Positions 1 through 43,269 of a stretch of 64,000 nt of DNA are shown piece by piece. The DNA is taken from assembly GCF_963921235.1 (NCBI RefSeq), contig NC_086108.1, positions 23,932,001 through 23,996,000 on the forward strand, written 5' to 3'. A program made the translations under genes and the position numbers. The notes beneath the pieces were generated by a model. That model had not been told where the DNA came from. It was given only the letters and a program-made list of their open reading frames with translations, and searched no databases. This DNA is from Mobula hypostoma (taxonomy: Eukaryota). Numbering within the stretch: position 1 is the first letter of the stretch; each line of letters begins with the position of its first letter.

Positions 1-2160
1 TGGCCACTCGGTAGTACAGTCCACCATGGTGAGAAGGTGCGTGAAACCATGGGAGGGGCAAAGAGGACCAACAAGGTCTGCATTGACATGGTCAAACTGT
101 CACTCAGAAAGTGCCAATGGCACCTGAACATGACAGTTCATTTTTCCCTGCTGGCACTCCACACTAGCTGCAGTCCAATCATGCATATCCTTTCTGAGGC
201 TGTGCCAAACAGACTTTAGTACAACCAGTTTCTATGAGTCCTTCCAGCCTGGATGTGAGAGGCCGTGTATGGAGTCAAAAACAGTCCCTCTCTGGTTTGC
301 GGTCATGATGGGGTGAGGGTGATCATTTGAGACATTGCACAGAAGAGCAACCCCAGCTTCCCTGATCTTAATGTCAGCCAACCTCAGGTCTGTGATGCTG
401 TTTGGTAAGCCTGGACTTCTGGGTCAGTAACTTGGTCAGCTGTTATGCTGGCGTGGTTAACCTCTATGTGTAAGTCTCAACGACTGGCCTTGAGAGGCAA
501 TTGGATTATTTTTCCCTTTGATATGTTGTATATTTGTTGTGAGCTTGGATATGTAGGCCAGGTGACGTTGCTGTTGTGTAGACCAAGGGTCTGACATCTC
601 AGCCATCATGTGCACAAGGGGTTTGTGGCCAGTGAATGCTGTGAAATGGTGACTCTGTAGAAGAAAATGAAATGGTGGACAGCCAGATAGAGACCGAGAA
701 ACTCATGATCAAACGTCCTTTCAGGGGAATGGAGCTGCTGACTGAAGAAGGTTAGCTGCTGCCACAGCTCTGACCAGCTGTTTGTGCACAGCACCCACAG
801 CATAGTCTGAAGCATCAGTAATAATGGCTATAGGTGCACTGGGGAGTAGGTGCTCATTTAGTATCATCAAATGTCCTCGTCCTATCTGCTGACCAGTCAA
901 GCACATGATTGGGGTATTGCCTTCAAGTGCACTGCACAGGGGAAGCATAAACTCAGCAGCTCACAGAATAGAACGTTACCATACTTAAAATCTCCTATAG
1001 ATTTTTTTTGTATCGTGGGGCAGTGGGAAATCTATTATAATAGCTACTTTTGATGGGAGGGGTTTTGCACCTGCAGAGATGCGATGGCCTAGAAAGTCAG
1101 TGATTGACAACCCAAACTGGCTTTTAGCAGGGTTAATAATCAATTCGTGTTGGCTTAAGTGCTCGAAAAGTGTGTGGAAATGAGATACGTGTTCAGATTT
1201 AGACACAATTGCGACAAGAATGTCATCCAGGTAAACAAAAAAAAGTCTAAGTTTTTTAATACAGAGTCCATCAGCTGTTAAAAGCCTGTGCTGCATTTTT
1301 CAGTCCAAACGGCATGAGCGGAAACTCAGAAAGGACAAATGGGGTTATCACAGCTACTGTTGGAAAGTCCTCTGAGCACACAGGTACTTGATGGTAGCCC
1401 TAAGTAGGTCGACTTCAGAAAAAATTATCACTGTGGCTAAATGTGCTGAAAAATCTTAGATGTGTGGAACCGGGCAATGATCAGTGGTGGTGGCTTCGTT
1501 AAGGCATCTGTAATCACCACAGCCAGGGACCAAGGACCCATATGGAGGGGTAAAGCCCAGGGGCTATTCAACAGGTGTACAAGGCTGAGTTGTTCCATAT
1601 TGGCAAACTCAGCTTTCACAGTTGCCAGCTTTTCTGGGTCTAGTCCAAGCACACGGGCATGGACTGGTGGGCCATTTGTGGGAATGTGGTGTTCGATCCC
1701 ATGCCTTCTAGCTGTAGTGGAGAATGTGAATTTGGTGAGGTCTGAGAATTCACCCAGTAGTCAAGTAAACTCACATGCAGTGGTGTGTGTGCTTGGCAGA
1801 GCCATTGTGGGAAACTGACTGGGGAGACCGGGTCACACCCAAAGTCCTTGACATCCACAAGCCGGCAGTTCAAAAGATCCTACAGTCCTTGGGTACACAG
1901 GAATTCTGCACTGAGCAGAGGTCAAGCCACTTTAGCCAGAATGATGTGTAACGTTGCCGACTGAAGCAGAGCATCACCCATCGTGTTCCATAGGTCTGGA
2001 TCTTGCTGCTGTTGGAAGCCTCTAGCAAGCTTTTGTTGCTCTTTGCCTTCTCATCAACAGGTGATGCTGGTAGCATATTCACCTGAGCACCCATATCACA
2101 TAAGAGGCATCGTCCTGAAAGGGAGTCTGTAATTAACAGTAAGTGGTCCTGGCAGCTGGA
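1..2160 (-). pseudogene. pol: Gypsy pol remnant (PR-RT-RH-INT)
   Basis: ORF-track fragments 1870-2319, 1437-1652, 985-1296 (YLDD), 721-948 (TDAS), 606-815. Confidence 0.85.
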
Positions 2161-2258
2161 ACCCATGGTGTCCACCGGCCTCTGATGTCCCGATGTGCTG
2201 CCACTGTTGAAGGTGCGAGGTGATTGGCACTTCCTACCAAAGTGAGTGTGGTAAAAAC

Positions 2259-2835
2259 TCAGGGCAGGTGCTTCACAGCTGCAGGTGTCCTTATGTTGAG
2301 GGCCTTGCTGACTAGGCATATTGAGGTAGAGAAAGGAGGCAGAATGATGTACTGCTGTCTAGCTGAGTGTAGGCTACCAGCCATTTTAGCAAGCTCCCTA
2401 TGGTCCGTCATGGGTGCATTAGTGAAGGCTATGCAAACTTGATCAGGCATTTGCTGCATGAAGAGTTCATTAAAAATAAAACAAGGATGGTGATTTCCCA
2501 GGAGAGACAGCATGTGGTCCATTAGCTCTGAAGGCCAAGCATCCCCTAGGCCAGGAAAGGAGATAACTGTTTGGCATGCTCATACTCCGATAGCCCATAA
2601 GTTTGTAAAAAGTGAGTTTTCAGTTATCAGTATTTATCGTTTACAGGCGGGTGTTCAAGCGGACTCAACACTCTCGCTGCCATGGAACTGCTGAGCAACG
2701 CTACCACTTAGTATAATTTGGTGTCCTCAGCGGTGATTTCTTGCAGATTGAACTGGGCCTCAGTTTATATAAACCAAGTGACGACCTTTTGCTCCCAAGC
2801 TCTGGCAGCTTCAAAGCAACTGTGTTGGCTGACAT
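2259..2835 (-). pseudogene. gag: Gypsy gag remnant
   Basis: KLP..W..WF..EAQF...IT..DTK N-terminal motif; ORF 2259-2522 MDHMLSLLGNHHPCFIFNELFMQQMPDQV. Confidence 0.8.
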
Positions 2836-3092: not shown

Positions 3093-3399
3093 ATGCCAAT
3101 TTATGTTTATGCTGTTTAACTGAAGAGGTATTGCTGAAGACAGCTAATTTTCACCTTAGATTCATACCCCAAAATATACACCTATGACAACAACAAACTT
3201 GACTTGGGAAGAATAGTAACTAATAATTCCTTAAGATGCAAGAGATGCTGAAATCTGAGGAACTCAGCATCATCTGTTGAAGGAATGGACTTGTGGAACT
3301 TCAGATCGAAACTACATCTGGATGTAACAATTCCTATTAGAATGTAAACTGTGATTAAAATGTACTTTCTGAAAGATCAGAAATTTTCTTTTTTTTTGT

Positions 3400-3525
3400 A
3401 GAAACACACGCAAAATGTTAGAGGAATTCAGCAGGCCAGGCAGCATCTTTTGAAAAGAGTAGATAGTCAACATTTCGGGCCGAGACCCTTCTTCAGAACT
3501 GGGAAGGAAGGGGAAAATCCTGAAT
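3400..3525 (-). mobile_element. Short Penelope-derived 3' tail element
   Basis: acacacgcaaaatgttagaggaattcagcaggccaggcagcatc matches, reverse-complemented, the 3' end of the Penelope element at 37095-37185. Confidence 0.8.
3465..3500 (-). ncRNA. Minimal type-I hammerhead ribozyme motif
   Basis: Minus strand reads AGTT-CTGAAGA-a-GGGT-ctcg-GCCC-GAAA-tgtt-GACT: CUGANGA box, stem II, GAAA box, UH triplet (GUU), stem I agtt/gact. Confidence 0.7.
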
Positions 3526-7305: not shown

Positions 7306-8206
7306 AGTGCATGCATGAGAGAGAGAATCAGGTAGTGTGTGTATACATTGTTGTTACAGAATTAGTAAATGAGAAAGTTTTCAAGATTTACAGTCACTAA
7401 AATTGCAACTGCTTGCTCCTCAACTGAGTGAAAACTCCTAATGTTTTATAGAAAAAGAATACTAAACAGAGAGGCATCTGAAACATTAACATTTTAAGCA
7501 TCCCCAGAAATACGGTTCTCCTTTGCAACATCTCTCCAGCCCTTGCATGCCATAGTACCTGTGTGATTTTCTTTCTCTATCATCTATAATTGGGTTGAGA
7601 CTTCAGAGTCCACTTGTCCGGTATTTTGCATATATCACCTGCAGCAAGCTGTTGGCAAGGCAATAAATTCATTATGAGAGAGTCTGAGGGGAGCCTTGGC
7701 ACTGTGAAATACTGCACAGTGACCTTATCTTCCACACTGTTCATCCCAATCACTGCTCTGTCACCCACCACTGGTTACATCTCCAACAACCACGACAGAA
7801 TAGAATAACACTACCCATAAAAATCAAAATGCTCTGTGAACTCTCCATCCTTGCCATTTGTCAAAATAGCATTCTTCAGACATAATTGGGTAGAAACAGC
7901 CCAGAATTTCAAAATCTATTGACTCATTTTTCATCAATGCTTGGTTAAGCACATTAAAAAATCCAATCCTTTTTGTGACATGTACATCCGGAATCTGGTA
8001 GGCTTTTAAAGGGATATCATGTTTGAGTAAGCAACTGCATAAAGTGACACAGAAAAACACACGCATTGTAAAGTTCTAAAGTACTGCAAGAAAAATTGCA
8101 AGGCAATATCAGAAACAAAATATTCTGAGAGGAAAAGTAAAATGTTTTACAAAGTGAGGATTCTCAAAGGATAAACAAACTGCTGGAAATACTCAGTTGA
8201 TCAGGC

Positions 8207-8329
8207 AAGAGAGAGAGAGCGAGAGAGAGTGAGAGAAAGAGAGAGAGAGGGAGAGGGAGTAGGAGAGGGAGAGGGAGAGGGAGAGAAAGAGAGAGAGAGG
8301 TAGAGAGAGAGTGAGAGGGAGAGAGAGAC
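8207..8329. repeat. (GA)n polypurine microsatellite
   Basis: Imperfect GA tract flanked by Penelope-tail remnants (8175-8207 minus, 8365-8420 plus). Confidence 0.95.
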
Positions 8330-9831
8330 AGTCAGACAAAATACCTTCCAATGGGTTGTTCATTCTGTTACTCTTTCTGCAAATGCTGCCTTATCTGCTG
8401 AGCATCCCAGCACATTCCTGATTTTGGAATCTGTAACAGCGTAAGATTCTTATGGAGTTGTATTGTAGGCCTGACAAGCCTAGGGATTCTGAATGGAGCA
8501 GGTTCATGTTGGGATGTGACTCCATTGTACATTTACAACCCCACTGTCCTTCACCTGATCAACCATAAATAAACCAAGACTCTCTTGTCAGTGGAAGCCA
8601 GAGAGCTTTAATGCACTCAGTATAAGCATAGGAATAAGCTATATGGTACATAGTCTTAAACATTTCCATTGTATCAACTCCCACCATTTCCCAGGGCAGT
8701 ACATTCTGGGCACCTATCTCTCCCTCTGTAGAAAGTTCCCCCTCAAATTCTTTGACATTTCCATCCTTGAAAAGGAAGCTCAGACTATCTATCCTATCTA
8801 TACCTCATAAGTTTATAAAGTTCGATAAGCTGGCCCCTCAGACTCTCCAGAGAAAAGAATCCAAGTTTGATCAACCTCTCCTTTTTGCTAATACTCTCTA
8901 ATCCAGGTAACATCTTGTTGAATTTCTTCTGAACACTCCCCAAAGCATTCACATCCAACTATTCCAAATGCCGGCTAACCAATAGAATATGTGAGAGCGA
9001 TTCTGGATGGAGCTGTGGGATGTGTTACATGTGAGAAGTTGGGGAGGGGGAATTAAGGGATATACTTTCTGTTCTGGGCTCCTTGTTAGAGTACTGTCCC
9101 CATATTAGGGCCAATTGTTTTCCGGGAACTGCAGTAGTTTCTGCAACATTACTCCCATTGCTTTACAATAATGCAATGGTCAAGTGGGTGTCTATAGTGG
9201 GATAAAGCATATGACAAGTACCATCAGTCTACCTGTGAAGCATGACACATCACTCAGTACCATTTTGAACGGGTCAGTCAGCTGCTTGGACTGCTTAAGG
9301 GGACGTGAACCACAATGTGTCACTCAGAGACACATCATTCAACAACACAGACACTCTTCAGTCAGTGCATCATCTGCAGCTACAGACAAGCGTTAATTAC
9401 ATCCTGCTTTGAAACATAAAATTGCGTGGCTACATCATGTTTATGCACCTCAAGGCAAGTTATATGCCAATTTAGTAAAACACTTAGACACCTGCGTGTA
9501 GCTTAAATAATTGAATTTTATTATTACATGGACAATTTTTTCTGCAAGTTTTTAGAATCACGTGCTGACATGCACAGCAACACACACAAAGTGCAGGAGG
9601 AACCCAACAGGTCAGGCAACATCAATGGAGGGATAATGAGCTGACATTTTGGGCCAATGTGTTTATAATTATAATGATCATATTTTAATGTGTTTGTAAT
9701 AATCAATGAAGTTGAATTTATTTTTTATTGCATGCAACATAGAATTTCTATCAGTGTTACATTGATACTCAATCTCCAATTCTGACAACGTTTCTGTGAA
9801 AACTGACTGACAAGATGAAAATTGAGGCTCA

Positions 9832-10030
9832 AGAAACACACACAAAATGCTGGAGAAATGCAGCAGGTCAGGCAGCATCTATGGAAAAGAGCACAGTTGA
9901 CGTTTCAGGCTGAGACCCTTCATCAGGACTGGAGAAAAAATGCTGAGAAGGGGGAATCTGATAGAAGAAGACAGAAGGCCATGGAAGAAAGAAACGGGGA
10001 AGGAGCATCAGATGGGCAGGTAAGGAGATG
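9832..10030 (-). mobile_element. Short Penelope-derived 3' tail element
   Basis: aaacacacacaaaatgctggagaaatgcagcaggtcaggcagcatctatgg...cccttcatcaggactgg. A truncated same-strand copy lies at 9578-9657. Confidence 0.85.
9894..9931 (-). ncRNA. Minimal type-I hammerhead ribozyme motif (best-preserved copy)
   Basis: Minus strand reads CAGTc-CTGATGA-a-GGGT-ctca-GCCT-GAAA-C-GTC-aACTG: canonical CUGAUGA and GAAAC boxes, GUC cleavage triplet, stem I cagt/actg. Confidence 0.8.
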
Positions 10031-10204
10031 TTGTTCCATCTTGTTCCATTGGAATAACTAAAAAACCTCTTGACCTTGCATTTCTATGCTATAAATTGTA
10101 ACTTTCTGTGTCTTCAGAAATTTAGATTAAAATAATTAATTTTACTTTAGCTAACCTATGATATGGACAAAGCTTGCAATATTACCTATTACCTTGTGTT
10201 TCTA

Positions 10205-10380
10205 CCTATCCCTCCACCTCCCAACTCTGCCTCCTCATCTTTTTTCCTCCAGTCCTAATGAAGGGTTTCGGCCCAAAACGTCCACTATTCTCTTTTCCAT
10301 AGTTACTGCCTGGCCTGCTGAGTTTCTCCAGCATTTTGTGTGTGTTGCTTGAATTTCCAGCAACTGCAGATTTTCTCCTG
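10205..10380 (+). mobile_element. Short Penelope-derived 3' tail element with mutated hammerhead core
   Basis: cagtcctaatgaagggtttcggcccaaaacgtccact...gcctggcctgctgagtttctccagcattttgtgtgtgttg. Confidence 0.85.
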
Positions 10381-10778
10381 TTTGGGGGAAAATCTGAATA
10401 CATTCATCCTATATAAAAAAGAGCTTTAACCAGGGCCAATCTGGACATTGGAAGTTTTGAGTGGAGGGGATATCGATCAGGTCCACTGCCTGAGAATAAA
10501 AGGCAGCAGTGGGTCAGTACAATGAAAAAGCTCTGACCAGCGACCAATCGGCGTTTGGGATTGATTAGCAAGAGAAAATTAAAGGAAGGCAGAAGCAAGC
10601 ACTGCGGCCATTGTCTAAGTGGACAGAGTCAGAGTAGTGATCTTGAGGCTTTAACTCTTTGAAGCTTCAACGAACGGATGCTTCAGTCAGGAAAAACAAC
10701 GGAAATAAAAGCTCAAGTTTTTTCCCTCTCTTCTTTATATCTGCTCAGCAAGGACAGTAGGGATGACAGGCAAGATAG

Positions 10779-13700
10779 AAACATAGAAACAAAGAAAATA
10801 GGTGCAGGAGTAGGCCATTCGGTCCTTCGAGCCTGCACCGCCATTCAGTATGATCATAGCTGATCATCCAACTCAGAACCCTGCCCCAGCCTTCCCTCCA
10901 TACCCCCTGATCCCCGTAGCCACAAGGGCCATATCTAACTCCCTCTTAAATACAGCCAATGAACTGGCCTCAACTGTTTCCTGTGGCAGAGAATTCCACA
11001 GATTCACCACTCTCTGTGTGAAGAAGTTTTTCTTAATCTCGGTACTAAAAGGCTTCCCCTTTATCCTCAAACGGTGACCCCTCATTCTGGACTTCCCCAA
11101 CATCGGGAACAATCTTCCTGCAACTAGCCTGTCCAATCCCTTTAGGATTTTATACATTTCAATCAGATCCCCCCTCAATCTTCTAAATTCCAACGAGTAC
11201 AAGCCCAGTTCATCCAGTCTTTCTTCATATGAAAGTCCTGCCATCCCAGGAATCAATCTGGTGAACCTTCTTTGCACTCCCTCTATGGCAGGGATGTCTT
11301 TCCTCAGATTAGGGGACCAAAACTGCACACAATACTCCAGGTGTGGTCTCACCAAGGCCTTGTACAACTGCAGTAGTACCTCCCTGCTCCTGTACTTGAA
11401 TCCTCTTGCTATGAATGCCAGCATACCATTCGCCTTTTTCACCACCTGCTGTACCTGCATGCCCACTTTCAATGACTGGTGTATAATGACACCCAGGTCT
11501 CGTTGCACCTCCCCTTTTCCTAATCGGCCACCATTCAGATAATAATCTGTTTTCCTGTTTTTGCCACAAAAAGTGGATAACCTCACATTTATCCACATTA
11601 AATTGCATCTGCCATGAATTTGCCCACTCACCTAACCTATCCAAGTCACCCTGCATCCTCTTAGCATCCTCCTCAGAGCTAACACTGCTGCCCAGCTTTG
11701 TGTCATCTGCAAACTTGGAGATGCTGCATCTAATTCCATCATCTAAGTCATTAATATATATTGTTAAACAACTGGAGTCCCAGCACTGAGCCTTGCGGTA
11801 CCCCACTAGTCACTGCCTGCCATTCTGAAAAGGTCCCATTTATTCTCACTCTGCTTCCTGTCTGCCAACCAATTCTCTATCCACATCAATACTTTACCCC
11901 CAGTAACATGTGCTTTAAGTTTGCACACTAATCTCCTGTATGGGACCCTGTCAAAAGCCTTTTGAAAATCCAAATATACCACATCCGCTGGTTCTCCCCT
12001 ATCCACTCTACTAGTTACATCCTCAAAAAATTCTATGAGATTCGTCAGACATGATTTTCCTTTCACAAATCCATGCTGACTTTGTCTGATGATTTCACCA
12101 CTTTCCAAATGTGCTGTTATCACATCTTTGATAATTGACTCTAGCATTTTCCCCACCACTGATGTTAGGCTAACCGGTCTATAATTCCCCGGTTTCTCTC
12201 TCCCTCCTTTGTTAAAAAGTGAGGTTACATTAACCACCCTCCAATCCTCAGGAACTAGTCCAGAATCTAAAGAGTATTGAAAAATTATCACTAATGCATC
12301 CACTATTTCTTGGGCTACTTCCTTAAGCACTCTGGGATGCAGACCATCTGACCCTAGGGATTTATCTGTCTTTAATCCCTTCAATTTACCTAACACCACT
12401 TCCCTACTAACATGTATTTCCCTCAGTTCCTCCATCTAACTGGACCCTCTGTTCCCTACTATTTCTGGAAGATTATTTATGGCCTCCTTAGTGAAGACAG
12501 AACCAAAGTAGTTATTCAATTGGTCTGCCATGTCCTTGCTCCCCATAATCAATTCACCTGTTTCTGTCTGTAGGAGACCTACATTTATCTTAACCAATCT
12601 TTTTCTTTTCACATATCTATAAAAGCTTTTACAGTCCGTTTTTATGTTCCCTGCCAGTTTTCTCTCATAATCTTTTTTCCCTTTCCTAATTAAGCCCTTT
12701 GTTCTCCTCTGCTGGGCTCTGAATTTCTCCCAGTCCTCAGGTGAGCCAGTTTTTCTGGCTAATTTGTATGCTTCTTCTTTGGAATTGATACTATCCCTAA
12801 TTTCCCTTGTCAGCCACGAGTGCACTACCTTCCCCAATTTATTCTTTTGCCAAACTGGGATGAACAATTGTTGTAGTTCATCCATGTGATCTTTAAATGC
12901 TTGCTATTGCATATGCACCGTCAACCCTTTAAGTGTCATTTGCCAGTCTATCTTAGCTAATTCACGTTTCATACCTTCAAAGTTACCCTTCTTTAAGTTC
13001 AGAACCTTTGTTTCTGAATTAACTGTGTCACTCTCCATCTTAATGAAGAATTCCACCATATTATGGTCACTCTTTCCCAAGGGGCCTCTCACGACAAGAT
13101 TGCTGATTAACCCTTCCTCATTGCTCAATACCCAGTCTAGAATAGCCTGCTCTCTAGTTGGTTCCTCGACATGTTGGTTCAAAAAACCATCCCGCATACA
13201 TTCCAAGAAATCCTCTTCCTCAGCACCCTTACCAATTTGGTTCACCCAATCTATATGTAGATTGAAGTCACCCATTATAACTGCTGTTCCTTTATTGCAC
13301 GCATTTCTAATTTCCTGTTTAATACCATCCCCAACCTGACTACTACTGTTAGGTGGCCTGTACACAACTTCCACCAGCGCTTTCTGCCTCTTAGTGTTAT
13401 GCAGCTCTACCCATATCGATTCCACATCCTCCCGGCTAATGTCCTTCCTTTCTATTGTGTTAATCTCCTCTCTAACCAGCAATGCTACCCCACCTCCTTT
13501 TCTTTCATGTCTATCCCTCCTGAATATTGAATATCCCTGAATTCCTTGTTACGACTGCTCCTTGCATTGACAGACAAAGCCTTCAGGCTCACTTTTACAA
13601 CACTCTTAGCCCTTATACAATTATGCTGAAAAGTGGCCCTTTTTGATTTCTGCCCCGGATTTGCTGGCCTGCCACTTTTATTTTTCAACTTACTACTTGT

Positions 13701-14818: not shown

Positions 14819-16691
14819 ATGTTGTTCTGCATAGGGAGTTCAGGGAGCTATGTGCTAAGTTAAAGGGTAGGACTTCCAGGATTATGATCTCAGGGTTGCT
14901 ACCCATGCCAAGTGCTTGTGTTGGCAGTTCGTGGTTGAGCCCACTAGAGGATCAGCAATTCTGGATTGGGTGTTCTGCAATGAACCAGACTTGATCGGAG
15001 ACATTAAGGTAAAAGAACCCTCAGGGGAAAGTGATAATAATTTGATCAAATTCACCCTGAAATTTGAGAAGGAGAGCCAAAAGTCAAATGTATCAGTATT
15101 ATAGTGGAGTAAAGGGAATTACAGTGGCATGAGAGAGGAGTTGGCCAGAATTGATTGGAAAAAGACACTGGCAGGGATGATGGCAGAGCAGAAATGGCTG
15201 GAATTTCTGGAAGCAATTTGGAAGGCACAGGATATATACAGCAAAAGAGGAAGAAGTATTCTAAAGGCAAGATGGCACAACCATGGCTAACAAGAGAAGT
15301 CAAAGCTAACATAAAAGCCAAAGAGAGGGCATATAATAAAGCAAAAATTAGTGGACAGTTAGAGGATTGGAAAGCTTTTAAATACCAACAAAAGGTAACG
15401 AAAAAAGTAATTAAGAAGGTAAAGATGGAATATGAAAGTAAGCTAGCTAATAATATTAAAGAGGGTATCAAAAGTTTCTTCAGATACATAAAGTGTAAAA
15501 GAAAGATGAAAGTGGATATCGGACCTCTGGAAAACGGTGCAGAAGAGGTAGTATTGGGGGACAAGGATATGGCAGATGTACTGACTAAGTATTTTGCATC
15601 AGTCTTCATGGTGGAAGACACTATCAGTATGGTGGAAGTTCCATTAAGGATGAGGTCTCAGGATAATTAGCGGCTCATGTTAAAATAGGCCATAGTCAGC
15701 ACGGTTTCTTCAAGGGAAAATCTTGCCTGACAAATATGTTGCAATTCTTTGAAGAAATAACAAGCAGGATAGACAAAGGAGAATTGGTAGATTTTGTGTA
15801 CTTAGGACTTTCAGAAGGCCTTTGACAAGGTTCATGCATGAGGCTGCTTAACAAGCTATAGGCCCATGGTATTACAGGAAAGATTCTAGCATGGATAAAG
15901 CAGTGGCTGATTGGCAGGAAGCAAAGAGTGGGAATAAAGGGAGCCTTTTCTGGCTGGCTGCCAGTGACTAGTGGTGTTGCACAGGAGTCTCTGCTGGGAC
16001 TGATTCTTTTTATCTTATATGTCAATGATTTGAATGATGGAGTTGATGGCTTTGTTGCAAACTTTGCAGATGAGTATGAAGACAGGTGGAGGGGTAGGTA
16101 GTTTGAGGAAGTGGAGAGGCTACAGATGGACTTAAACAGACAAGGAGAATGGGCAAAGATATGGCAGATGGAATATAGTGTCGAGAAGTGTATGGTCATG
16201 CACTTTGGGAGATGAAATGAAAGGGTTGACTATTTTCTAAATGGAGAGAAAACACGAAAAAGTGAGGTGCAAAGGGATTTGGGAGTCCATGTGCAGGATT
16301 CCATAAAGGTTAGTTTGTAGGGTGATTCTGTGGTGAGGAAGGCAAATGCAATGTTAACATTCATTTCAAGGTGACTAGAATATAGTGAGTCTAAGACCAG
16401 AGGCCTCAGAATAGATAGGTATCCTTTTAAAACAGATGAAGTGGAATTTCTTCAGCCAGAGAGTGGTGAATCTTTGGAATTCTTTGCCGCAGGCAGTTGT
16501 GATGGCCAAGTCTTTATGTACATTTAAGGCAGAGGTTGACAGATTCTAGATTGGTCAGGGTGTGAAGGGATATAGGGAGAAAACAGGAGATCAAGATTGA
16601 GAAGGATATGATATCAGCCACGATGAAGTGGTGGAGCAGACTCAATGGGCCAGATGTCCTAATTCTGCTCCTATATCTCAGGTTCTTATAT

Positions 16692-18815: not shown

Positions 18816-19904
18816 TATATATTGCTGTTGCACACTGCATTTTGCTTGCTAATTATATAATGAAGACCATGTCCAAGTTACTTCCAGACAGAATCTACAG
18901 TGTCTGTGTCTATGTTAGGGAGAGAGCTTGGGCAATGATCTTCTGCACTAGATGGTGAGAAATCTCTCTGCAGTAATGGCAGCCTGCCCTGTCTTCTTTT
19001 GTCATGATAATCAAGTCTATGCATCTCTAAACTCTCCTGGCAAGCTCTCATCTTCCCAGTGAAGGGGGATGAGGTTATAAATTCAAGTCAGGAGCCTGAA
19101 CCCAATAAGTTTTAGAATTCTAGTCAGGGCACCAAACTGCTCCAGAGGGCTTGTTTTTTCCCCCCAGTTAGCTTAGGGCCTTGTCAAGTTCCTGGTGTGG
19201 AGTGACTGTGAGGATGGATCACATGACATTGGAAAGATTCAAGAACTCTCATGTTAAGGACAAGCCACAGTTGGAGGGGGCGGGGGGTACTTCAAAACAT
19301 TCCTACCAGTGGGCACAGGCGGACACTCCATGATCAGCTCATCTTCAGTCTTGGTTCCCTGCACGGAAGTGAGCCCTGGCCTTTATAAGAATCTCCTCCA
19401 CTTTTGGATGACATGGTCAACAGCTTTGAAGTTGCATGCATACAAACTAATACAGCATACTGCTATAAATGCATGGTGGTTTAACATTTTGAAATATCAG
19501 TCGGTTCATGCCTTCATAATATAAGCACTAGCTGTAAGTATTCTTCAGCATGTAAGTAAATCCTATTAGTAATTACAAAGGGATTTACGATTTTAATTAT
19601 GAGATGTGGCTACATTTGCAGAGTTGCTAATTTATGAGCTGATAAAGAGACTTCATTTAAAATGGGCTGCCTGTTGCAAGGCATGGTGTGCTATTCAGTG
19701 TGAGTGAATCTACTCCTGGCTTATGAATGCAAAGTGAGGAAGAGACAATGTTGACGATGATAGAAAATTAGAACCTGGAGAACTATGATTTCTTTGTGAT
19801 TTGAGCAGTTAGAAACCTTCATTCAGGGTATAATTACAAGAAATATCACCACTTCATTTCAATGAAACACCATAGTAGCAGAAGCAGGGTCCAGAACTGT
19901 AACT

Positions 19905-21105
19905 TCTACCATATCCAAAAGGATCTTACCACTAAACACATCTTTCCGCTTCCTCCACGCTTCACTTTTGGCAGAGATCACACTCTATGGGTCTCCCTTC
20001 CAAACTGATCTCCCTCTGCTCACTTAAGCTGTAAGCAGGACAAGTGCTACACCTGCCCCTACATCTCCTCCCTCAATATCATTCAGGGTCCCAAGCAGCC
20101 CTTCCAGGTGAGGTGATACTTCACCTGGGAGTCTGTCGGGGTCATCTACTATATCCAGTGCTCCCAGTGCAGCCTTCAATACATCGGAGACACCTGATGT
20201 AGATTGGCTGACTGCTTCGTCGAGAACCTTTGCTCTATCTGCCACAAAAGTTGGTCTTTCCCAGTGGCCATCCATTTTGGTTTCACTTCCCATTCCCATT
20301 TCAACATGTGAGGGGGAAGGTAAGCAGATGGGGAAAGACAGATGAAATGAGAAGCCAGGAAGTAACAGGTGGCAGAGGTAAAGGGCTGCAGAATAAGGGG
20401 TCTGATAGGAGAGGAGAGGGCACCAACTGAAAAAGGGAAAGAGGAGAAGGAGGAAAAGAGATTGCTTTGACAATCACCTTCGCTCAGTCTGCCGCAAAAG
20501 GTGGACTTACCCGATGGCCACCCATTTTAATTCTACTTCCCTTTCCCATTTTTACATGTCAGTCCATGGCCTCCTCCACTGCCACAGTGAGGCCACTCTC
20601 GAGCTGCAGAGAAGCACCTCTTATTCCATCTGGATAGCTTCAAACCTGATGGCATGAACATCAATTTCTCTAAATTCTGATAATTTCTCCCCCTTTCCCT
20701 TCTCTGTTAATCCAGTCCTCATTCAGACTCCCCTCTTATCCCTACCCTTCTCTTCACTGGCCCATCAACTCCCTCTTGGTGTCCCTCCTCCTTCCCTTTC
20801 TCCCATGGTTCACTCTCCTTTCCTACCAGATTCCTTCTTCTTCAGCTCTTTACTTATCATCTCTCAGCTTCTGACTTCATTCCCATTCTCCCGCCCTCCT
20901 ATCTAGCCCCTCACCTGGTTTCACCCATTACTTGCCAGCTCATACTCTTCTCCATCCCCACATCCCATCTTCTTATTCTGGATTTTTCCCTCTCCCTATC
21001 CAGCCTGATGAAGGGTCTTGGCCAAAATGTTGACCATTTGTTCTTCTCCACAGATGCTGCCTGACCTGCTGAGTTCCTCCAGCATATAATGTTTGTTTCT
21101 TTGAA
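19905..21105 (+). mobile_element. Rearranged Penelope-like element 3' part (GIY-YIG remnant, internal inverted segment, tail)
   Basis: ggggtcatctactatatccagtgctcccagtgcagccttcaatacatcggagacacc is the GIY-YIG region, homologous to 36595-36655. 20308-20460 is an inverted 3' UTR piece. Tail has cctgatgaagggtcttggccaaaatgttgac at 21004-21034. Confidence 0.85.
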
Positions 21106-23494
21106 TTTTTAGCATTACAGAATCTATGGTGTTTAAGAAAATACTTGATAACTGTTCTTAACTGAAGGCAGTGCAACAAGAAAAGAGGAAGAACATTGAA
21201 GCAGTTGTCAACTTAATTTATAAAAATAATTTGAAATTGAAATTGCACTTGTGAATACTGAGAAATATATAAGTATTTTCTTTGTATTCCTGCAACCTTC
21301 ATATGAGTATGGCTTAACAATACATGAACAAATCATTAATCATGCAACAGGTAATGTTCAATGACACCCCACATGGGATAGTGGATGTTAACACTAATGG
21401 AATTGTCCTTTAAAGCTTCCATTAATTAAAATGTAATTGATGGAAAGGATGTGCTTAATTTCAAAACACTACCCAATGAACTGAATAAATACCTGGTGCA
21501 TCTTTTGTCTCTTGATTGAATACAACATTACTGAAAGGTCTTCACAAATATAAATACAGCGGCAACAATGGGGGGATTGTAATCAAGAGATAATTAAACT
21601 CCTAATAAGCCTGTCAAGGAACAAACAAATAGATTGAGATGTGGCTCTCAGTCACTGGAACCATGCAGACTTCTACAGCAGGTGAACGCACTCGGGTGTG
21701 ATTTAACTTGACGACAGATTCCTTTGTTTAGTAACACGTGGTACTCTTTTGTCAATTTTACAGAAGGAACATTGCATTGCTATTTAAAATGTATTCGAGA
21801 AGATTTTTCTTTAAATTCTTGTCTTTTTAATTGTCATTTCCTTCCACAGGAACATCCTGCCTTCTATTATTTGTTTTCTCTGCTTCCTGATTCCTCCTTC
21901 ATTTGCCAAATTCCCATTGATTCCCCTTCCCCTAACAATCAGTGGCATGACAGTCTTACTTGGTGACAAGAAGCTACCAGTGCTTTCATGTTCACTTAGG
22001 TGTCAATCACCATAATGTACTATCATAGCTCGTTCACTTTCATCAGCTTAGGTCGAGTTCCTGTAATGAGTTGTCATGAATTGTCACCTCAGGCACTGTC
22101 ACATACCTCCCTGCACATTAATTCATTAAGTACAGCTTGCCGTCCAAACAAATACTGTAGTACTTAAATGCAGCCCACACCTCTTATAACTTGGCACATG
22201 AATATACCCATATACAATCTAGAACAGGCATGGTCCTAGATTAATATCTTCAATCTATTAAATACTATTGCTTTAGCTGATTGTTGGATATTGACGGAAG
22301 CAGATATAACTGGCCAGGTTGGTGCAATTTATATTTTGGGAAGAAGTGTTACTGGTCTGTAGGAGGTTCCAGGGGAATTAAAAAAAAGAAGACATTGAAG
22401 AGTTTGAAACAGGAATATGCAACATTGAGACTGGGGAAAACAGGAGGCAAAATAGGTCAGAAAGAAGAAAGGATAATGGAAGCCTGGTTAGGTGTGGGGT
22501 AGATGAAGGGGAACAGAGATTGGAAGAACATAAGTTCACAGAAACTGGTGGGTGGGAGGCTGCAGAAATATCATGAGAACAGTTAAAATCTGGTCCATGT
22601 ATATCGACTCCACATTATACCTCTTGCATAAATACTTTCTTGTGTAGTCTTACTTCTGAAACTGATAAAGGATAGAATTGGCAGGAACCGATGGTAGTAT
22701 ATGTGCAGCTTGCAAACGGGTTAGGGACTTGTCTTTCAGAAGTCCTTGTGCTGGATCCTAAATCTTTACTGAGCTAGTTGGTCTCAGGGAATGATACTAC
22801 AGATGACCTCAATCAACTAAGGGAGGAGATAAAAAATTAATAGGGTCCCTGCTATGAATTCACTTCCTCCCTGCTGGAAAGTAAATACTTCTGTATATTT
22901 GAGTGCGAAGAAATGTACAATGCTGTTCTTGCTTTGATGCCAACACTTACCAATCCCTTTTTCGAACATCACTCAAGGTTCAGTTATAAGATCCCTTGCT
23001 CCAAGTCAGCAGCTTGTAAATTCAAGTAAATTCAAATCTAGCCTGCCTCTTGACCATAATCAAGTCCATGTTTTAAAGCTATATCTTCTTTTTCCGTAAG
23101 CTGTACTTTTGAACGGTATCATTAATATCCTTATCTAAAACAATAGCATTTCTCCCATTTCTGCATATGATTTTGCTCTCAACGAACCGATAGAGAAATG
23201 GGAAAGCAAATGGTCTCAATCTGCACTAAGTAATTCTCTGAATATAAAAAATATGCATTTCAATCATTAACCAAGTTTTAAAAGGTGTTAGTGTCGGCCT
23301 ACTTAGTCCCCAGTAATCTACTTATCAATATCGAGTTGGATTTCATCAGGATTATTTTGAAAAACTGAAGTCAAAGAGAAAACAAGGTCACACCTCATAC
23401 AAAGGAAGATTGTTGTGGTTGTCTGAGATCAGTCATTCCAGTCCCAGAATATCAGTGCAAGAAAATTTCAGTTGATCAAATCAGTAATGTTTAC

Positions 23495-25621: not shown

Positions 25622-26553
25622 ATAGATAGATAGATATACTTTATTGATCCCGAGGGAAATTGGGTTTCATTACAGCCGTACCAACCAAGAATAGAGCATA
25701 AATATAGCAATACAAAAACCACAAACAATCAAACAACAAAATGCAAACTGTGCCAGATGGAAAAAGTCCAGGACCAGCCTATTGGCTCAGGGTGTCTGAC
25801 CCTCCACGGGAGGAGCTGCAAAGTTCGATGGCCACAGGCAGGAACAACCTCCCATGATGCCCAGTGTTGTATCTCGGTGGAATATGGCCGGAGTCCAACA
25901 GCAAGAAGTTCAATATCCAGTCTACAAATACGTTCCTCGATCGTAATATGACCCGGATTGCACAATCCGTTGTTAACCAGAACAGTAAGCATCCAACTCT
26001 TTTACGCTTACCACTTTCAGTGCACTTCCGGTCAGCCCGAACGGTCTGGAAGCCATCCATGGAAAAGTTTTGATCAGTTATGTCCTCGTGCAGCCCCGTT
26101 CTAGTAAAACACATAACACTGCACACCTGAAATGTTCTCTGACACCTGGCTAGCGCCGTGAACTCATCCATTTTATTACCCACCGAACTCCTCTTCTCCA
26201 TAAGTCTCTGTTGTCTCGACCTGGTCCTCTTTCCTTGCCTTTGTGATCCCCCTCTGCATTCTCTGTGTGTTTTCCTCCAGATTTCAGCAGGGGTGTCCGT
26301 CGCTCTGTTTGCTAAACCCGGCCAGCATAAGCTCAATCAGCTGGTCCCTGGAATAAACAATGCGACCATGCTTCTGCCCCACTAATGAGACGTGTCCGAA
26401 TGTAACTATTTCCAGTGCTAAAAACCCAAATAAAACTCTCTCCACCAGCATGTTAGAGAGGGTGCAGCTTCAACGTGTTACCGTGAAAAAAAAATACGAA
26501 AAATAACGTAAGTTAAGAAAGTAAGAAGAAAAAAGTAAGAATGCATGCGCACT
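25622..26553 (-). mobile_element. Non-autonomous, internally deleted Rex1/Babar element, copy 1
   Basis: 5' UTR and N-terminal APE fragment (NKMDE...CSVMCFT...DGFQTVRADRK..ESGKRK; DIELLAVGLRPY) joined directly to the last ~30 codons (PPRY...FLPVAIEL..SS.GGSDTLSQ*), 3' UTR and (TATC)n tail. Confidence 0.9.
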
Positions 26554-27365
26554 GACGACCGGTGCATATACAGTGATTGACTAAGTGTGGAAGAGCATGC
26601 TGTTGAATCTGGACTGGTTTACATGGTTGATACACTTCACATGCACTTGGGCAAATGGACTTGCCTGTCAAGTACTGTCGAGAATGAAGAGAGCTTCCAA
26701 CAGATAACGTTAAGCCATTATTGAAGTCAGACTAAATGTATTAGGATAATGCAGCTTAAACATTTTATCTTAGGTACAAATCCATTCCAGAGGGAAGAAT
26801 GAAACGTTGTAATTCTGTTAATCTCTTGAAATTAGTCTCAAAGCATAAGGCTATAGGTATGGAAAATATGTCCTCTTTCTGGTCTAATAATAGATCCTTA
26901 ATTAATATTTTGCAGACACAATGCCAGCGAGATCACTAATTTAGAACTGAGCATAATTAATCAATCTCACAGAAAAGGCATGAGGAAGATGAACATTTTG
27001 AAACAGTACTTGAGATAAAGTTGCCGTCACAGAGCTTTACTTGTAACTAGCACAAACTTGTCTGCTGCTATTTGCAGTTTCAAAGGCCAGACAGCTGAAA
27101 GTTCAAGTAAGCCGGAAATGCTGGAAATATTCAACGGGTTAAGCAGCATCTGCTAAAAAAGAAATGAGCTTGGTGTTTCAGGTCAATGACACTTCATTTG
27201 TGTTGTATGTGGAATAGTCCAGAAACTTGGATGCATTTTTCAGTATCTTGAATTTTCTGCTGGATGGAGGAGGATAGTGCCTGCTCTTGAAATCCCAGCA
27301 GACACATCCAACCACAGTTCACTCTTGTACTGGTGATACTTCCACCTCAGTTATGCATATGATCA

Positions 27366-34482: not shown

Positions 34483-35059
34483 TTGTTATGATACGGTAAG
34501 ACTCTAGAACAGCCAGAGGAAATACACATGGCGATGGAGAGAATAGGCAATTCCACACTAATAAACAGAAGTCAGGACCACTGGGGTTGTGTAGCAGCAG
34601 CAGCACCAACTGCAGTTCCACTGTGCTCCCTGCATACACCAATGTACATCAAGTTCAAATTCAAGTTGATTGTCATCTCATTGTACTTCATACAACTAAA
34701 TGAAACAACATTCCTCTGGACCATGGTAAGTTTGAACTGGTCAGTCTCATATTCAAGAAGCCTTTAATATCTTAGCATTATTGACTCTAGGCTATTCCAA
34801 GAAAGTTAATTGCTTTGCTGGAAGGTGTAATGATATTGCTGAAAAAACAAACAATCATCCAAGATCAGCCAAAATGTTTACTAATTGTTGAATGCAATGA
34901 ATGTTCAGAATTCCAGCTGGCCAAACTCAAAATGCTCCTGGCTTTTACCTGATAATGCATTGTCACAAGAGATTCTCTTCTTTGTGATTCCTGATCATGC
35001 AATGGTTTGGGCTTCAGGAGGCCAATTGGCTCATTGAATCTGGGTCTGGTGAGAGGACA

Positions 35060-36892
35060 AAGCGCTGCCCTCCACTCTCTCCGCACTAATCCCAACCTTA
35101 CCATCAAACCTGCTGACAAAGGTGGTGCCGTAGTAGTCTGGCGGATGAACCTCTACCTCACTGAGGCAAAACGTCAGCTCCCTGACACCTCCTCTTACTT
35201 ACCACTGGAACAGGACCCCACCAAAAAACATCAAACCATTGTCTCCCACACCATCACCGCCCTGATCAACTCCGGAGACCTTCCATCCTCAGCTGCTAAA
35301 CTCATTATTCCCACACCCCACACCACTCGGTTTTACCTCCTCCCAAAGATACAAAAGCCTGACTGTCTTGGTAGACCCATAGTTTCTGCCTGCTCCTGTC
35401 CCACCGAACTTGTATCTGTCTACCTGGACTCCATTTTGTCACCCATAGTTCAGTCCCTCCCCACCTACATCCGGGATACATCCCATGCCCTCCAACTCTT
35501 CAATAACTTCCAATTCCCCGGTCCCAACTGCTACATTTTTACTATGGATGTCCAATCCTTATACACCTCCATTCCCCATCAAGGAGGCCTCAAAGCCTTC
35601 CGCTACTTCCTGGATGATAGACCTCACCAGTTCCCCACCACTACTACCCTCCTCTGGTTGGCGGAACTGATTCTCACACTTAATAACTTCTCTTTTGGCT
35701 CTTCCCACTTTCTTCAGACTAAGCGTGTAGCTATGGGAACTCACATGGGACCCAGCTATGCCTGCCTCTTCGTTGGTTATGTGGAACAGTCTGTGCTCCA
35801 AACCTATTCTGGTACTGCTCCCCAACTTGTCCTTCGGTACATTGACGACTACATTGGTGCTGCTTCCTGCACCCATGCTGAACTCGTCAATTTCATCGAC
35901 TTTACTTCAAACTTCCACCCAGCCCTCAAATTCACTTGCTCTTTCTCAGACACTTCTCTCCCCTTTCTCGATGTCTCAGTCTCCATCTCTGGAGACAGAC
36001 TGTCCACTGACATCTTCTACAAGCCCACTGACTCTCATAACTACCACGACTATACCTCTTCCCACCCCACCACATGCAAAAATGCCATTCCCTATTCCCA
36101 GTTCCTCCGTCTCTGCTGCATCTGCTCCCAGGATGAGGCTTTCCGTTCCAGGACATTTCGAATGTCCTCTTTCTTTAAGGATTGTGGTTTCCCTTCTGCT
36201 ATCATCAATGATGCCCTCACCCACATCTCCTCCATTTACCACACTTCGGCCCTCACCCTATCCTCCCGCAACCACAACAGGGACAGAGTTCCCCTTGTCC
36301 TTACCTACCACCCCACCACCCTCTGGATCCAGCACATTATCCTCCACAACTTCTGCCACCTTCAACAGGACCCCACCACTAAGTACATTTTCCCTCTCCA
36401 CCCCTCTCCACTTTCCGCAGGGATCGATCCCTCCGCGACTCCCTTATCTGCATGTCCATCCCCACTGATCTCCCACCCGGCACTTATCCCTGTAAGCGTA
36501 AGTGCTACACCTGTCCCTACACCTCATCTCTTGCAACCATTCAGGGCCCCAAACAGTCCTTCCAGGTGAGACAACACTTCACTTGTGAGTCTGTTGGGGT
36601 CATCTACTGCATCCGGTGCTCCCGGTGCAGCCTCCTCTACATCGGTGAAACCCGACACAGATTGGGGGACCGCTTCATCGAGCACCTCCACTCCGTCCGC
36701 CACAACAGACAGGATCTCCTGGTAGCCACCCACTTCAACTCTGCTTCCCATTCCCATTCAGATATGTCCATACATGGCCTCCTCTACTGCCATGATGAGG
36801 CTAAACTCAGGTTGGAGGAGCAACACCTGATATACCGTCTAGGTAGTCTCCAGCCCCTTGGTATGAACATAGATTTCTCCAATTTCTGGTAA
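35060..36892 (+). pseudogene. Penelope RT + GIY-YIG endonuclease ORF with one apparent frameshift near 36400
   Basis: ORF 35007-36569 (no stop through RT) overlaps ORF 36452-36892 (GIY-YIG) in a different frame. Confidence 0.9.
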
Positions 36893-37098
36893 TTCACTCC
36901 CTCTCCCTTCCTCCAACCCTATTTCACTCCACCCCCTCCCCCAGCTCCCTCATGGTTCCGCCACCTTCTTCTACTATCCATTGTTTTCAGGGCTATGACG
37001 TCAATGCTTCCCCTCACCCACCCCTTTGTCTTTCAAATTACTGGTCTTTCAACTGACGCTACAAGCATTCTTCAAATCCTTCCCCATCTTTCATTCTT

Positions 37099-37135
37099 CA
37101 GTCTTGACGAAGAGTTCCGGGCGAAACGTCGAATC
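37099..37135 (+). ncRNA. Hammerhead-like motif in Penelope 3' terminal region (mutated)
   Basis: cagtc-TTGACGA-agagttccgggc-GAAAC-GTC-gaatc; first core base is T instead of C and stem II is imperfect. Confidence 0.55.
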
Positions 37136-37699
37136 ATCATTTCTAACTGATGCTGCCCGACCTGCTGAGCTCATCCAAGCTATTTATTACCAGGAAGAAC
37201 ACTGGGACCCCAGTTAGACAGTAGTGCAGGCCATGTGGATTGCCACTGACATAAATGAAGAGTGGAGGGATTAAAAGAAAAATGGAGCAACGTTTCCTAA
37301 CTTACTTTAACAAAAACAATCAGTCATTATAAAGATGTTAGAATTCAAATGATTCAGGAACTACTTTCAAAGGAACTTGCCATGATTTTATGCAGCTGAG
37401 TGCAGAATTGTGACTGAATGAAAGCAACTTCAGCTGCAAGTGTAAGGTTTCAAATTCCATTCTAAGACTAGGCTTTAGGAAAAGGAAAATGGGACTGATG
37501 GAGTTGTCCTGCTGGAAGCTGGATTGAACTGATTGGCCTCCTTCCATTTTGAAGAATATAAGAATGTATTGGTGTGCTTGGCATAATGAATGAAGAAATG
37601 GAATTGACTGTATTGCATAACTGGAGATTTGATTAATAAAGTTTATTTGGGGGGCGGGTGAATGGTAGATTAGGTAACAGGCAGGCAATGGAGGAGTCC

Positions 37700-40095: not shown

Positions 40096-42574
40096 CAAGA
40101 CCAAAAGAAAATCACTAATAAGCGATCACTAATAAACTCTGATGTATTACTCCAATAATTCCCTTCTTTGAATATGATGTTGCATCCCCAGCATTTTGTG
40201 CAATTAAAAAAGACCCACAAGGATGAAACATAACAAGGTGCATTGGAGAACAAAGCCACAACCATCTCCAGACTGGGGTCAGCAAGGGTTGTGCTGTGAA
40301 GCCCTTGAGATGACAGTTCAAAGTTCTAGCAAATATTGCACAAAGTTCTGCTTATATCGCCGATAAATTAGTCCACCCATAGCAACGGTCTTAACTCTGA
40401 TACCAGGACTAAAGATGCTCAGGCTTTAAAGAGGTGGGGTAAAAATGCCTGTCCTCCTTTAACCCTGCTGATCTTTTGCCTCCCACTGCAGCTCAGATGA
40501 ATGGCCTTCACCTGAACAAAGCTGAATAGATTACACCAAATCATTAAATTAATAGATTATGCACAACTAAATAATACTGTTTAACTTCAGCAAAAACAGA
40601 GTAGAGGAGTTTAAATAGTGTATTGAGGCAGGAACTAGGTGCTTCTCTAATGATTAGGAAAGTGCGGAGGACAGTCTGATTTCCTAAGCAACACACACAA
40701 AATGCTGAAGGAACTCAACAGGCCAGGCAGCATCTATGGAAATGAATAGACTCTCAATGTTTTGGACTGAGAACTCTCCTGTTGAATGTGCACACTGGAA
40801 CTTTGTCTCATCGGAACAAAGCTAAAGGTGTGCTGACCAAACACCACTCAGGTGAACAAAGTGCACTGGCAACTGGAGGAGACATCTCACTGTGCCTATC
40901 CCTATCCCTATCCCTATTCCTGTCCGGCTCCACTTCCTCCTTCTGCTACCCCACCCCCACAACCACATCAGGTGTCAATAGATGGGCATGGTGCATCAAG
41001 CAATAATTCTGCCATTTCCACTACTCTCTATTTTTACATATGATATTGTGCAAGTGACTGTAATAAGGAAGAGTTAATTTTTATCTTCCACAGAGATGTT
41101 GGCTCTGAGGTCCTTAATCCACCCTACTTAAATTAAACTAAAAGGAACAGACAAAAATCTTGGACAAGGGATTTTCAAGGGGTGTGTGTGTGTGTGTCTC
41201 TCAACTGTAATTAAATTCTTGAGGGAGATGAGGGAGGATGTTTAGTGAGGCAGAACACAACTATTGGAATATTGCCTTGGGGGTCAATCAGGTCATTAGT
41301 ACCCAGAGGTGTTAGACTATAAATTATGCACATATCTTAACTAAATAAACCATACTTTCTGAGCAGTGGCACAGTGGCAGATGGAATACACAGGTGACCA
41401 CACAAGCTACATTTGTGTATGATCGTCCTGCAGGAACAGAGCGACAGAACATTACTTAAACTGTAGCTTTCTGGAGTCTCTTGTTCTGTAACTGCTCAGT
41501 TCTATTTCCTTATTCTGGTACTTACGCCTCCTGAGTTTTGGACAGAACTAGAGGGCTTTCAGGGAGCTTTGTAAGCAAAATTACACGTCTAATGATGAAA
41601 AAAACACAGAACAGTACATGCTGTGCAAAAGCTTCAAGAAGGCTGATACAACTTCCCTCTGGTCCCTCAGAAATAAAACTGGCAACTTACAAGCTGCCGT
41701 AAATCTGTGACATGAGGATAAGGAGATAACTGAAGAATGTATTGAGCTATGCGACTTCAAAACTGAACTGCAGTTTTAAGAAAACATCCATCATTTCTAT
41801 GCAGCACTAACAGTGCCACTGCTGGTTAAAAAATTCAGAGAAGAATTTTCAATAATCCCATACATGACACAGCCTCTTTAGACCTAAAATGGATCACATA
41901 TTGCTCATTGGATATACAACTTAATGAAATTAATGGTCTAATTAGACTCCAGTCTTGGCAAAACACGTGGTAACAAGGATTGCTAAACAGATCCAGTTCA
42001 AGAAATCACACAGAAGAGAATACATCTTATTTTACAGAAGTTGCCACCAACACTGAAAATGTATGTTATATGAGTTGGTTGCGTCAGTAAAGTTGCTTGA
42101 GGAAAACAGATTTTTTTTTCCCCAGAAACAATGCTTTAGCATTTAATTAGTAAGACAATGTGTACCTGGGGATAAATGAACAAACACAATCTATAATTAG
42201 GACTGAAACCAACAGTTCAATTTAAATATCTCAGGATTCAATTTATACACAACAAATACTGGGACCGATTACAGCTGATTCTTTGCAATAGCAATTCCAA
42301 TGTATCAGATTCTGACAAGTGCTAAACCTAGTCTTCAAATTCTCCATCATTTATATTGATAATATTCAGCACCAGTGAATAACTGAAATGTCTTAAGAGA
42401 AGTGTTATTTTAAATTTTGGATTGCTCTTTGCCCTTCTACTTCTCTTGCTCAATGTTTATGTTCTTCTCATGTAGATACTCTCACAAGCATCATAGCAGT
42501 CTTGGCCTGAGCTAAAATAAATACACTGTACTTTTCTGGCTTTCCACCCCACATTTGTGGGATCTCTCAAAGCA

Positions 42575-42920
42575 GTATGTAGTCCCCTTCTCTCTTCTTC
42601 TGTTTCCCACTCTAGCTTTTTACCTCTCCTCACCTACCTATCGCCTCCCCGTGAGTCCCTTCCTCTTTCCCTTTCTCCTATGGTCCATTCTCCTCTCCTA
42701 TCAGATTTCTTTCTCTCCAGCCCTTTACGTTTCCCTCCCACCTTATTTCATTGATCACCTTCTAACTATCCTCCTCCCCCTCCCCCCACCTTCTTATTCT
42801 GGCATCTTCCTCCTTCCTTTCCAGTCCCGAAGAAGGGTCTCGGCCCAAAATGTTGACTGTCTATTAATTTCTATAGATGCGCTTGACCTGCTGAGCTCCC
42901 CTAGCATTCTGTAAGTATTA
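42575..42920 (+). mobile_element. Penelope-derived 3' tail element with mutated hammerhead core
   Basis: Pyrimidine-rich 3' UTR, then cagtcccgaagaagggtctcggcccaaaatgttgactg (42822-42859) and gacctgctgagctcccctagcatt. A shorter minus-strand copy lies at 40686-40780. Confidence 0.85.
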
Positions 42921-43269
42921 TTCTTGTTGCTTTGGGGGAGTTCACAACAGCAATCTCACAAATAGCTGAGATGAATAAATGCCTTTGATTCAACGATAAA
43001 TATCAACCAGGACAGCAGATTTCTGTTGAAAGCACCTCTAACAACCACTAGAACAGTGACATCACCTTAGCCTTCCCTGGAAAATGCAGACACACAACAA
43101 TCCTTCAGTACAGCATTTAGGCCTCTGTCTGGCAAATGAATTTGAGTCATGGAGTGGGACCCAGATCTCTGATCCAGACAGCTGAACCAAAAGAAAGGAA
43201 GAACTCAAAGGAAAATTTTGAATAAACACCAATTTAAAAAAGCTAAAATTAAAGGAAATATATCAAAAT

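Follow-up and report, generated by a model that had tools for sequence, protein, structure and literature searches.

The minus strand of the window (the whole 64-kb stretch of DNA that was analyzed) reads CAGTC CTGATGA AGGGTCTCAGCCT GAAAC GTC AACTG from position 9931 to 9894, and the letters, a descriptor search, pair probabilities and the comparison of copies identify this site (9894..9931) as a decayed copy of a minimal type-I hammerhead ribozyme motif (min-HHR), hereafter the 9900 copy. The 5' and 3' strands of stem I (9931-9927 and 9898-9894) enclose the box CUGAUGA (9926-9920), an extra A between positions 9 and 10.1 (9919), stem II (9918-9907), GAAA (9906-9903), the palindrome ACGU (9903-9900) and C17 (9899). 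The cut is predicted after the GUC triplet, between 9899 and 9898, position 1.1 being the A at 9898 and position 2.1 being 9927. These letters and coordinates, together with the ACGT palindrome and the cut site, had been given in an initial annotation of this DNA, and all of them are correct. Both core boxes (CUGANGA and GAAA) are there, as is a UH triplet, here GUC, with 11/11 core bases kept, and positions 15.2-16.2 form the palindrome in place of a developed stem III, without a loop 3.

The descriptor combined a 5-base stem I with at most one mismatch, CUGANGA, a stem II of at least 4 pairs, GAAA, the palindrome and UH. In this relaxed form, with one stem I mismatch allowed, 9931-9894 was the sole site on both strands of the 64 kb, and a match was obtained in 1 of 300 dinucleotide shuffles. 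With zero mismatches, or with the 2.1/1.1 pair required, no site was found in the 64-kb window. The two hammerhead boxes alone matched nine times in the window, against 6.7 matches expected, which is chance level. The Rfam search that the initial annotation had proposed as a check came out negative: at E ≤ 10, no hammerhead family was present among the 11 matches to the whole window or among the 7 matches to 9850-9980. This negative result may reflect the models themselves. According to the available text of PMC4209133, the published minimal motifs were detected with a relaxed RNAmotif descriptor and not with a covariance model.

The insertion and its repeat family

The motif lies in an insertion of ~200 bp on the minus strand (9829..10028), which by alignment is a 5'-truncated Penelope 3' untranslated region/pLTR. 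Pairwise alignments of this insertion (10028-9829) with the copies at 21000 and 42820 reveal an internal deletion of ~90-140 bp, and no target-site duplication of over 5 bp was found at 9829-10028. Eight tail copies were identified in the 64 kb by BLAST and alignment, at 3480(-), 9640(-), 9900(-), 10255(+), 21000(+), 37100(+), 40740(-) and 42820(+). The same hammerhead architecture recurs in seven homologous copies, and none of the eight copies in the window (0/8) holds a whole, undamaged hammerhead.

Downstream on the same strand lies a truncated tail (9575..9664, minus) without the 5' strand of stem I and the CUGANGA box, and 6.4 kb downstream lies another same-strand tail (3399..3525, minus) with its hammerhead at 3465-3501. 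The latter motif keeps 11/11 core bases and the G10.1-C11.1 pair, has a U·G at 2.1/1.1, the triplet GUU and a G·U in the palindrome, and on paper is no worse a candidate than the 9900 copy. An inverted tail (10230..10362, plus) stands back-to-back with the insertion, and its hammerhead lacks G5, G12 and the 1.1 pair. The remaining tails without coding sequence are a decayed copy with a broken core (40686..40793, minus) and a longer 3' untranslated region with its tail (42614..42922, plus), the hammerhead of which lacks U4 and G12. A profile built from the eight copies added two older pieces (27116-27199 and 31517-31603). These two, both on the minus strand, as well as 8175-8207 (minus) and 8373-8416 (plus), are older, heavily diverged tail pieces of related families from which the hammerhead boxes are gone.

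Two of the eight tails stand behind GIY-YIG or RT plus GIY-YIG remnants of the Neptune type. Tails homologous to that of the 9900 copy follow GIY-YIG at 19901-20702 and RT plus GIY-YIG at 34995-36892, which places this tail among the terminal repeats of such elements. The first remnant (19901..21114, plus) comprises a broken GIY-YIG, an inverted internal piece, a 3' untranslated region and a tail with a broken hammerhead, and it is the closest coding link to the 9900 copy (80% identity across 105 nt, and 77% across a further 53 nt upstream). The broken GIY-YIG sequence before the 21000 copy is 71-72% identical to 36348-36910. Its endonuclease region is split by an inverted piece of the element's own 3' untranslated region (~20310-20460) and restarts with a short duplication.

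The second remnant (34995..37191, plus) is a 5'-truncated and frameshifted Neptune-type Penelope element with RT, a CX3CxxC linker, GIY-YIG and a tail. Pfam detected RVT_1 (E=1.7e-7) and GIY-YIG (E=1.2e-4) in it, and the linker CKRKCYTC lies in frame 36383-36892, giving the Neptune-type order of RT, linker and C-terminal GIY-YIG. The RT stretch is open over 524 codons, and a frameshift separates it from the endonuclease. The tail, the 37100 copy, belongs to another subfamily (73% identity over 77 nt), and its hammerhead (37097-37134, plus) is diverged and broken. Three of the 47 homologues of the endonuclease frame name an organism, and these come from a skate and a stingray, which suggests a ray or a relative as the source of the DNA. 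A stingray protein named as an ATP synthase subunit C3-like isoform (P0042) shares 90% identity with the Penelope endonuclease frame over 36% of the query and is probably an annotated isoform including repeat sequence. A PDB search with the window's RT gave 0 matches, and the ESM Atlas returned eukaryotic RT clusters at 0.95-0.98 that carry no clade name. A CX2-5CxxC linker marks Neptune or Nematis in the available text of Craig et al. (2021, PMC8557442). Domain layout and linker point to a Neptune-type parent, with Nematis as the other candidate.

The initial annotation had placed a minimal type-I hammerhead, its stem III reduced to a palindrome, in a Penelope tail that lacks an ORF, and the homologous tails bear this out. 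Judged from its sequence, the 9931-9894 motif is a genuine min-HHR of a Penelope-like 3' end and not a chance match.

The window contains various other repeats. Between the inverted tail and a LINE at ~10773 lies another repeat (10389-10668), on which the contig depth of the sequencing runs is lower. LINE remnants with RT and apurinic-endonuclease domains are found at 10876-13548(-), 15052-16560(+), 25622-26542, 27859-29806(-), 50942-55615(+) and 61984-62751, and by appearance they may be CR1-like, Rex-like and L1/Tx1-like. LTR-retrotransposon remnants at 460-2358(-) and 60226-63715(+) carry RT, RNase H and integrase zinc-binding domains. Tandem repeats occupy 38352-38624 (69 bp, 4 copies) and 33921-34064 (70 bp, 2 copies), and the hammerhead descriptor gave no match in either of them.

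Decay and surroundings of the 9900 copy

Four of the five stem I pairs of the 9900 copy close. The missing pair, 2.1/1.1, adjoins the cut and is a C·A mismatch, with A at position 1.1 (9898) where five of the seven other copies have G. The predicted register of stem II, with the A at 9919 bulged and a G10.1·U11.1 wobble, has a probability of 0.96, against 0.02 for the A-U register of the initial annotation. All seven other copies have C11.1, where the 9900 copy has U; the G10.1-C11.1 pair is thus present in the family and was lost here. With these two pairs damaged, the earlier description of the motif as intact-looking does not hold. The G10.1-C11.1 pair is highly conserved in the min-HHRs described in PMC4209133. 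In trans-acting minimal ribozymes, cleavage is at least 500-fold slower when the position just 3' of the triplet is mispaired, a figure that the available text of PMC3138052 gives for mismatches in general without singling out C·A.

Compared with the family state, the 9900 copy carries three changes (loop II G→A, C11.1→U and G1.1→A), all of which are CpG transitions. The family hammerhead contains four CpG sites (11.1/12, 15.2/16.2, 17/1.1 and loop II), and three of them are lost in the 9900 copy, one at the pair beside the cut. Since the family hammerhead has four such sites, ordinary methylation decay knocks copies out fast. The family state was inferred from the same eight copies that were tested, and the following numbers are rough, with statistics on 6-8 copies. 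Among the six full-length copies of the same subfamily (excluding the truncated 9640 copy and the 37100 copy of the other subfamily), CpG positions differ in 18/48 cells, compared with 21/178 elsewhere in the motif (p=1e-4). In these six copies, the non-CpG core was changed in 5/60 cells and the tail in 36/329 (p=0.65), i.e., the core is no better kept. All 11 core bases are kept in two of the seven full-length copies, with 1.4 expected from neutral rates. The 9900 copy shows no non-CpG change in 30 positions, for which the chance is 0.03 at the pooled rate and 0.19 at the rate of its own tail. A covariation test on the eight copies, which are few and decayed, found 77.8% of the cells paired and one two-sided change, not above shuffles.

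Min-HHRs require a partner copy, joined to them through the palindrome, as described in the parts of PMC4209133 and PMC6765202 available to us, and in the former a single Schistosoma motif gave no cleavage in vitro and dimers gave little. The closest copy on the same strand (9575-9664) has neither the 5' strand of stem I nor the first box, CUGANGA, and is therefore no dimer partner. The active homodimer was calculated to lie 10.9 kcal/mol above two monomers for the 9900 copy and 5.5 kcal/mol above them for the family state, in nearest-neighbor energies that omit tertiary contacts and of which only the differences between gaps count.

The inverted copy (10230-10352) is 85% identical over 123 nt and lies 318 bp upstream of the 9900 motif. 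When the minus strand from 10370 to 9820 was folded, 35 of the 38 motif bases paired with the antisense of the inverted copy, the probability of stems I and II was 0, and freeing the motif cost 48 kcal/mol. The hairpin formed by 9829-10352 in read-through RNA reaches -247 kcal/mol (z=-13). A minus-strand transcript from upstream makes the antisense of the inverted copy before the motif, and escape from the hairpin is predicted only for transcripts that begin between ~10200 and 9931. It is possible that the hairpin would serve as an A-to-I editing substrate in read-through RNA. The initial annotation had suggested that the copy may still cleave itself, for example in a host intron, an idea that is undercut by the burial of the motif in the hairpin of read-through RNA; the C·A pair, the lack of a close tandem partner with two boxes and the lack of any host exon among our results speak against it as well.

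In the window, Pfam detected no host-gene domain above the cut-off in 341 non-element frames, a scan by which shorter exons are missed. It covered 148 of the 188 frames of at least 50 aa at 1-24 kb (the others being simple repeats or lying within LINE or Penelope pieces) and, at 24-64 kb, 193 of 194 non-element frames together and the remaining one separately. The frame scans returned mobile-element domains only, plus three stray matches below the cut-off. No RNA data set was listed as matching 8900-10700. A sequencing run that we guessed to be RNA gave 8,167 contig records, which fell on repeat bins and not on most unique ones (15 of 30 bins with depth); this pattern speaks neither for nor against expression, and contigs show no cut ends. 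Three related organisms gave 53,818, 80,030 and 58,044 contig records, which are not copy numbers, with nearly all of the depth on the tail; the tail family is high-copy in ray-like genomes.

From organism B, one contig covers 8903-9864 and differs from the window at 13 of ~960 bases. Since it bridges the 3' junction of the insertion, organism B shares the insertion; B is a close relative, and its motif letters are indistinguishable from those of paralogues. In organisms C and D, contigs agree with the window at 10049/10062-10207 and depart from it further to the left, over ~980 and 2,750 bases, so that the arrangement differs there and is not plainly conserved. This suggests a lineage-specific deletion or insertion beside the element at 10049-10207. 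The absence of cover of 9754-9814 in organisms C and D proves nothing.

Interpretation and alternative readings

We consider it very probable that the 9900 copy is a real motif of a known kind that has decayed to a relic and is most likely silent. A Neptune-type Penelope-like element would have been copied in from its 3' end, by the mechanism known from the literature, and would have stopped after ~200 bases. Such a truncated insertion would leave only the tail with its minimal hammerhead, and the tails behind the coding remnants provide the link to an ORF. In an active parent, two tandem motifs would pair via ACGU into a double hammerhead and cut after GUC, as the literature describes for such elements. 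After insertion, the copy decayed in the manner of methylated DNA, and the three of its four CpG sites that are gone include the one beside the cut. It has no tandem partner, its read-through RNA is computed to be held in a long hairpin by the inverted neighbor, and cleavage in the cell is most likely absent. As counterpoints, the copy keeps 11/11 core bases, GUC and the palindrome with no non-CpG change in 30 positions, and the insertion is common to organism B and has thus persisted, though B is close.

It is unlikely that the 9900 copy still cleaves itself as a monomer or homodimer when transcribed, for example in a host intron. Boxes, GUC, palindrome, 4/5 stem I pairs and stem II are in place, and an anole Penelope hammerhead cleaves in vitro (PMC11167929). 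However, the C·A at 2.1/1.1 and the G·U at 10.1/11.1, the hairpin with the inverted copy and the lack of host-gene domains above the cut-off in 341 non-element frames argue against it, as do the inactivity of monomers in the published test (PMC4209133) and the anole element itself, for which the available text of PMC11167929 reports no RNA-seq reads ending at the cut site. We give slightly less credit still to a split complementation, in which the 9900 copy would work solely when joined with another copy in a mixed dimer: its enzyme half would cut a family-type partner, and its own GUC would be cut by 3465-3501. The two copies share the minus strand at a distance of 6.4 kb, and U2.1 of 3465-3501 would pair with A1.1 of the 9900 copy, giving the site in the latter 5/5 Watson-Crick stem I pairs, G10.1-C11.1 and intact boxes; the mixed-dimer energy gap of 5.5 kcal/mol equals that of the family homodimer. 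But this match was noticed post hoc, with a rough neutral chance of 1-4% for one pattern where other patterns would also have been eye-catching, and it needs a shared transcript, in which the motif would be sequestered if the start lies above 10370. Moreover, stem II of the 3480 copy has a probability of 0.008 in its own 450-nt context, stem III of the mixed dimer carries one G·U, and pair counts over the eight copies show no covariation above shuffles. The complementarity between the 9900 copy and 3465-3501 is probably a coincidence.

The lack of non-CpG change in the motif, the insertion common to organism B and the strong hairpin with the neighbor could also be read as signs that the host kept the copy for a purpose, as a regulatory ribozyme or a double-stranded RNA element. 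We regard this as highly improbable: the changes follow CpG decay and strike a pair that matters, to the left of 10049/10062-10207 the contigs of organisms C and D depart from the window, and Penelope insertion has been described to yield, as a by-product, pairs on opposite strands 100-700 bp from each other (PMC4209133). A mere chance match to the hammerhead boxes would agree with the absence of hammerhead families in Rfam and with the chance-level frequency of the boxes alone. Yet the full descriptor was matched in 1/300 shuffles and the same architecture recurs in seven homologous copies at the 3' ends of Penelope remnants, a repeat-family context that refutes this reading and leaves it a negligible probability.

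As a silent relic, the 9900 copy matters little, since the motif has been described before and exists in very many copies, of which this is a worn one. What it adds is that ray-like genomes carry a high-copy Neptune-type tail with four CpG sites in its hammerhead. We very much doubt that scattered decayed min-HHRs complement each other, such that the 9900 copy and 3465-3501, each crippled by itself, would together make up a functional double hammerhead that cuts a host transcript, with the enzyme half of the 9900 copy also cutting family-type RNAs in trans. Should decayed copies nevertheless cleave as mixed dimers, relics by the thousand could serve as cryptic cleavage sites within long transcripts, with consequences for RNA processing in these animals.

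Comparison with known systems

The 9900 copy resembles the min-HHRs of metazoan Penelope pLTRs (Cervera and de la Pena, 2014, PMC4209133), the available text of which describes type-I motifs with a 5-bp stem I, an extra base between positions 9 and 10.1, and a palindromic 15.2-16.2 segment with no loop 3, mostly as dispersed single copies of truncated elements. Opposite-strand pairs lie 100-700 bp apart there and 318 bp apart here. Stem II has 4 bp here, compared with 7-8 in the Schistosoma families, and, unlike those min-HHRs, the 9900 copy lacks the G10.1-C11.1 and 2.1/1.1 pairs. The hosts named in that text are bony fishes, coelacanth, frog and reptiles; names of sharks, skates and rays are absent from two of its supplement files, and a narrow search found no paper describing the motif of this ray family.

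The window's elements share with the Neptune clade, as presented in the available text of PMC8557442, an RT followed by a C-terminal GIY-YIG, the CX2-5CxxC linker, a hammerhead near the 3' end and inverted 5'-truncated neighbors, whereas the coding element of the window is truncated and frameshifted and has a tail of a different subfamily. The 9900 copy is also like the animal non-LTR retrozymes in being non-coding and Penelope-derived with a type-I hammerhead, and such retrozymes are reported in the one cartilaginous fish sampled (bioRxiv 10.64898/2026.07.22.740005). In the available part of that preprint, however, retrozymes consist of units arrayed in tandem, of which two or more in a row contain the complete motif, while the 9900 copy is solitary. 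A non-LTR retrozyme was rejected, as there is no tandem array at the locus and the same-strand neighbor lacks the first box.

In the Anolis Poseidon element PAc (Frangieh et al., 2024, PMC11167929), a Penelope-like element of a vertebrate, the hammerhead likewise lies at the pLTR; according to the available text, it cleaves in vitro and is dispensable for insertion. PAc is active, tandem and ORF-bearing, whereas the 9900 copy is ORF-less, decayed and of another clade. The 9900 motif works like, and descends from, the min-HHRs of Penelope terminal repeats.
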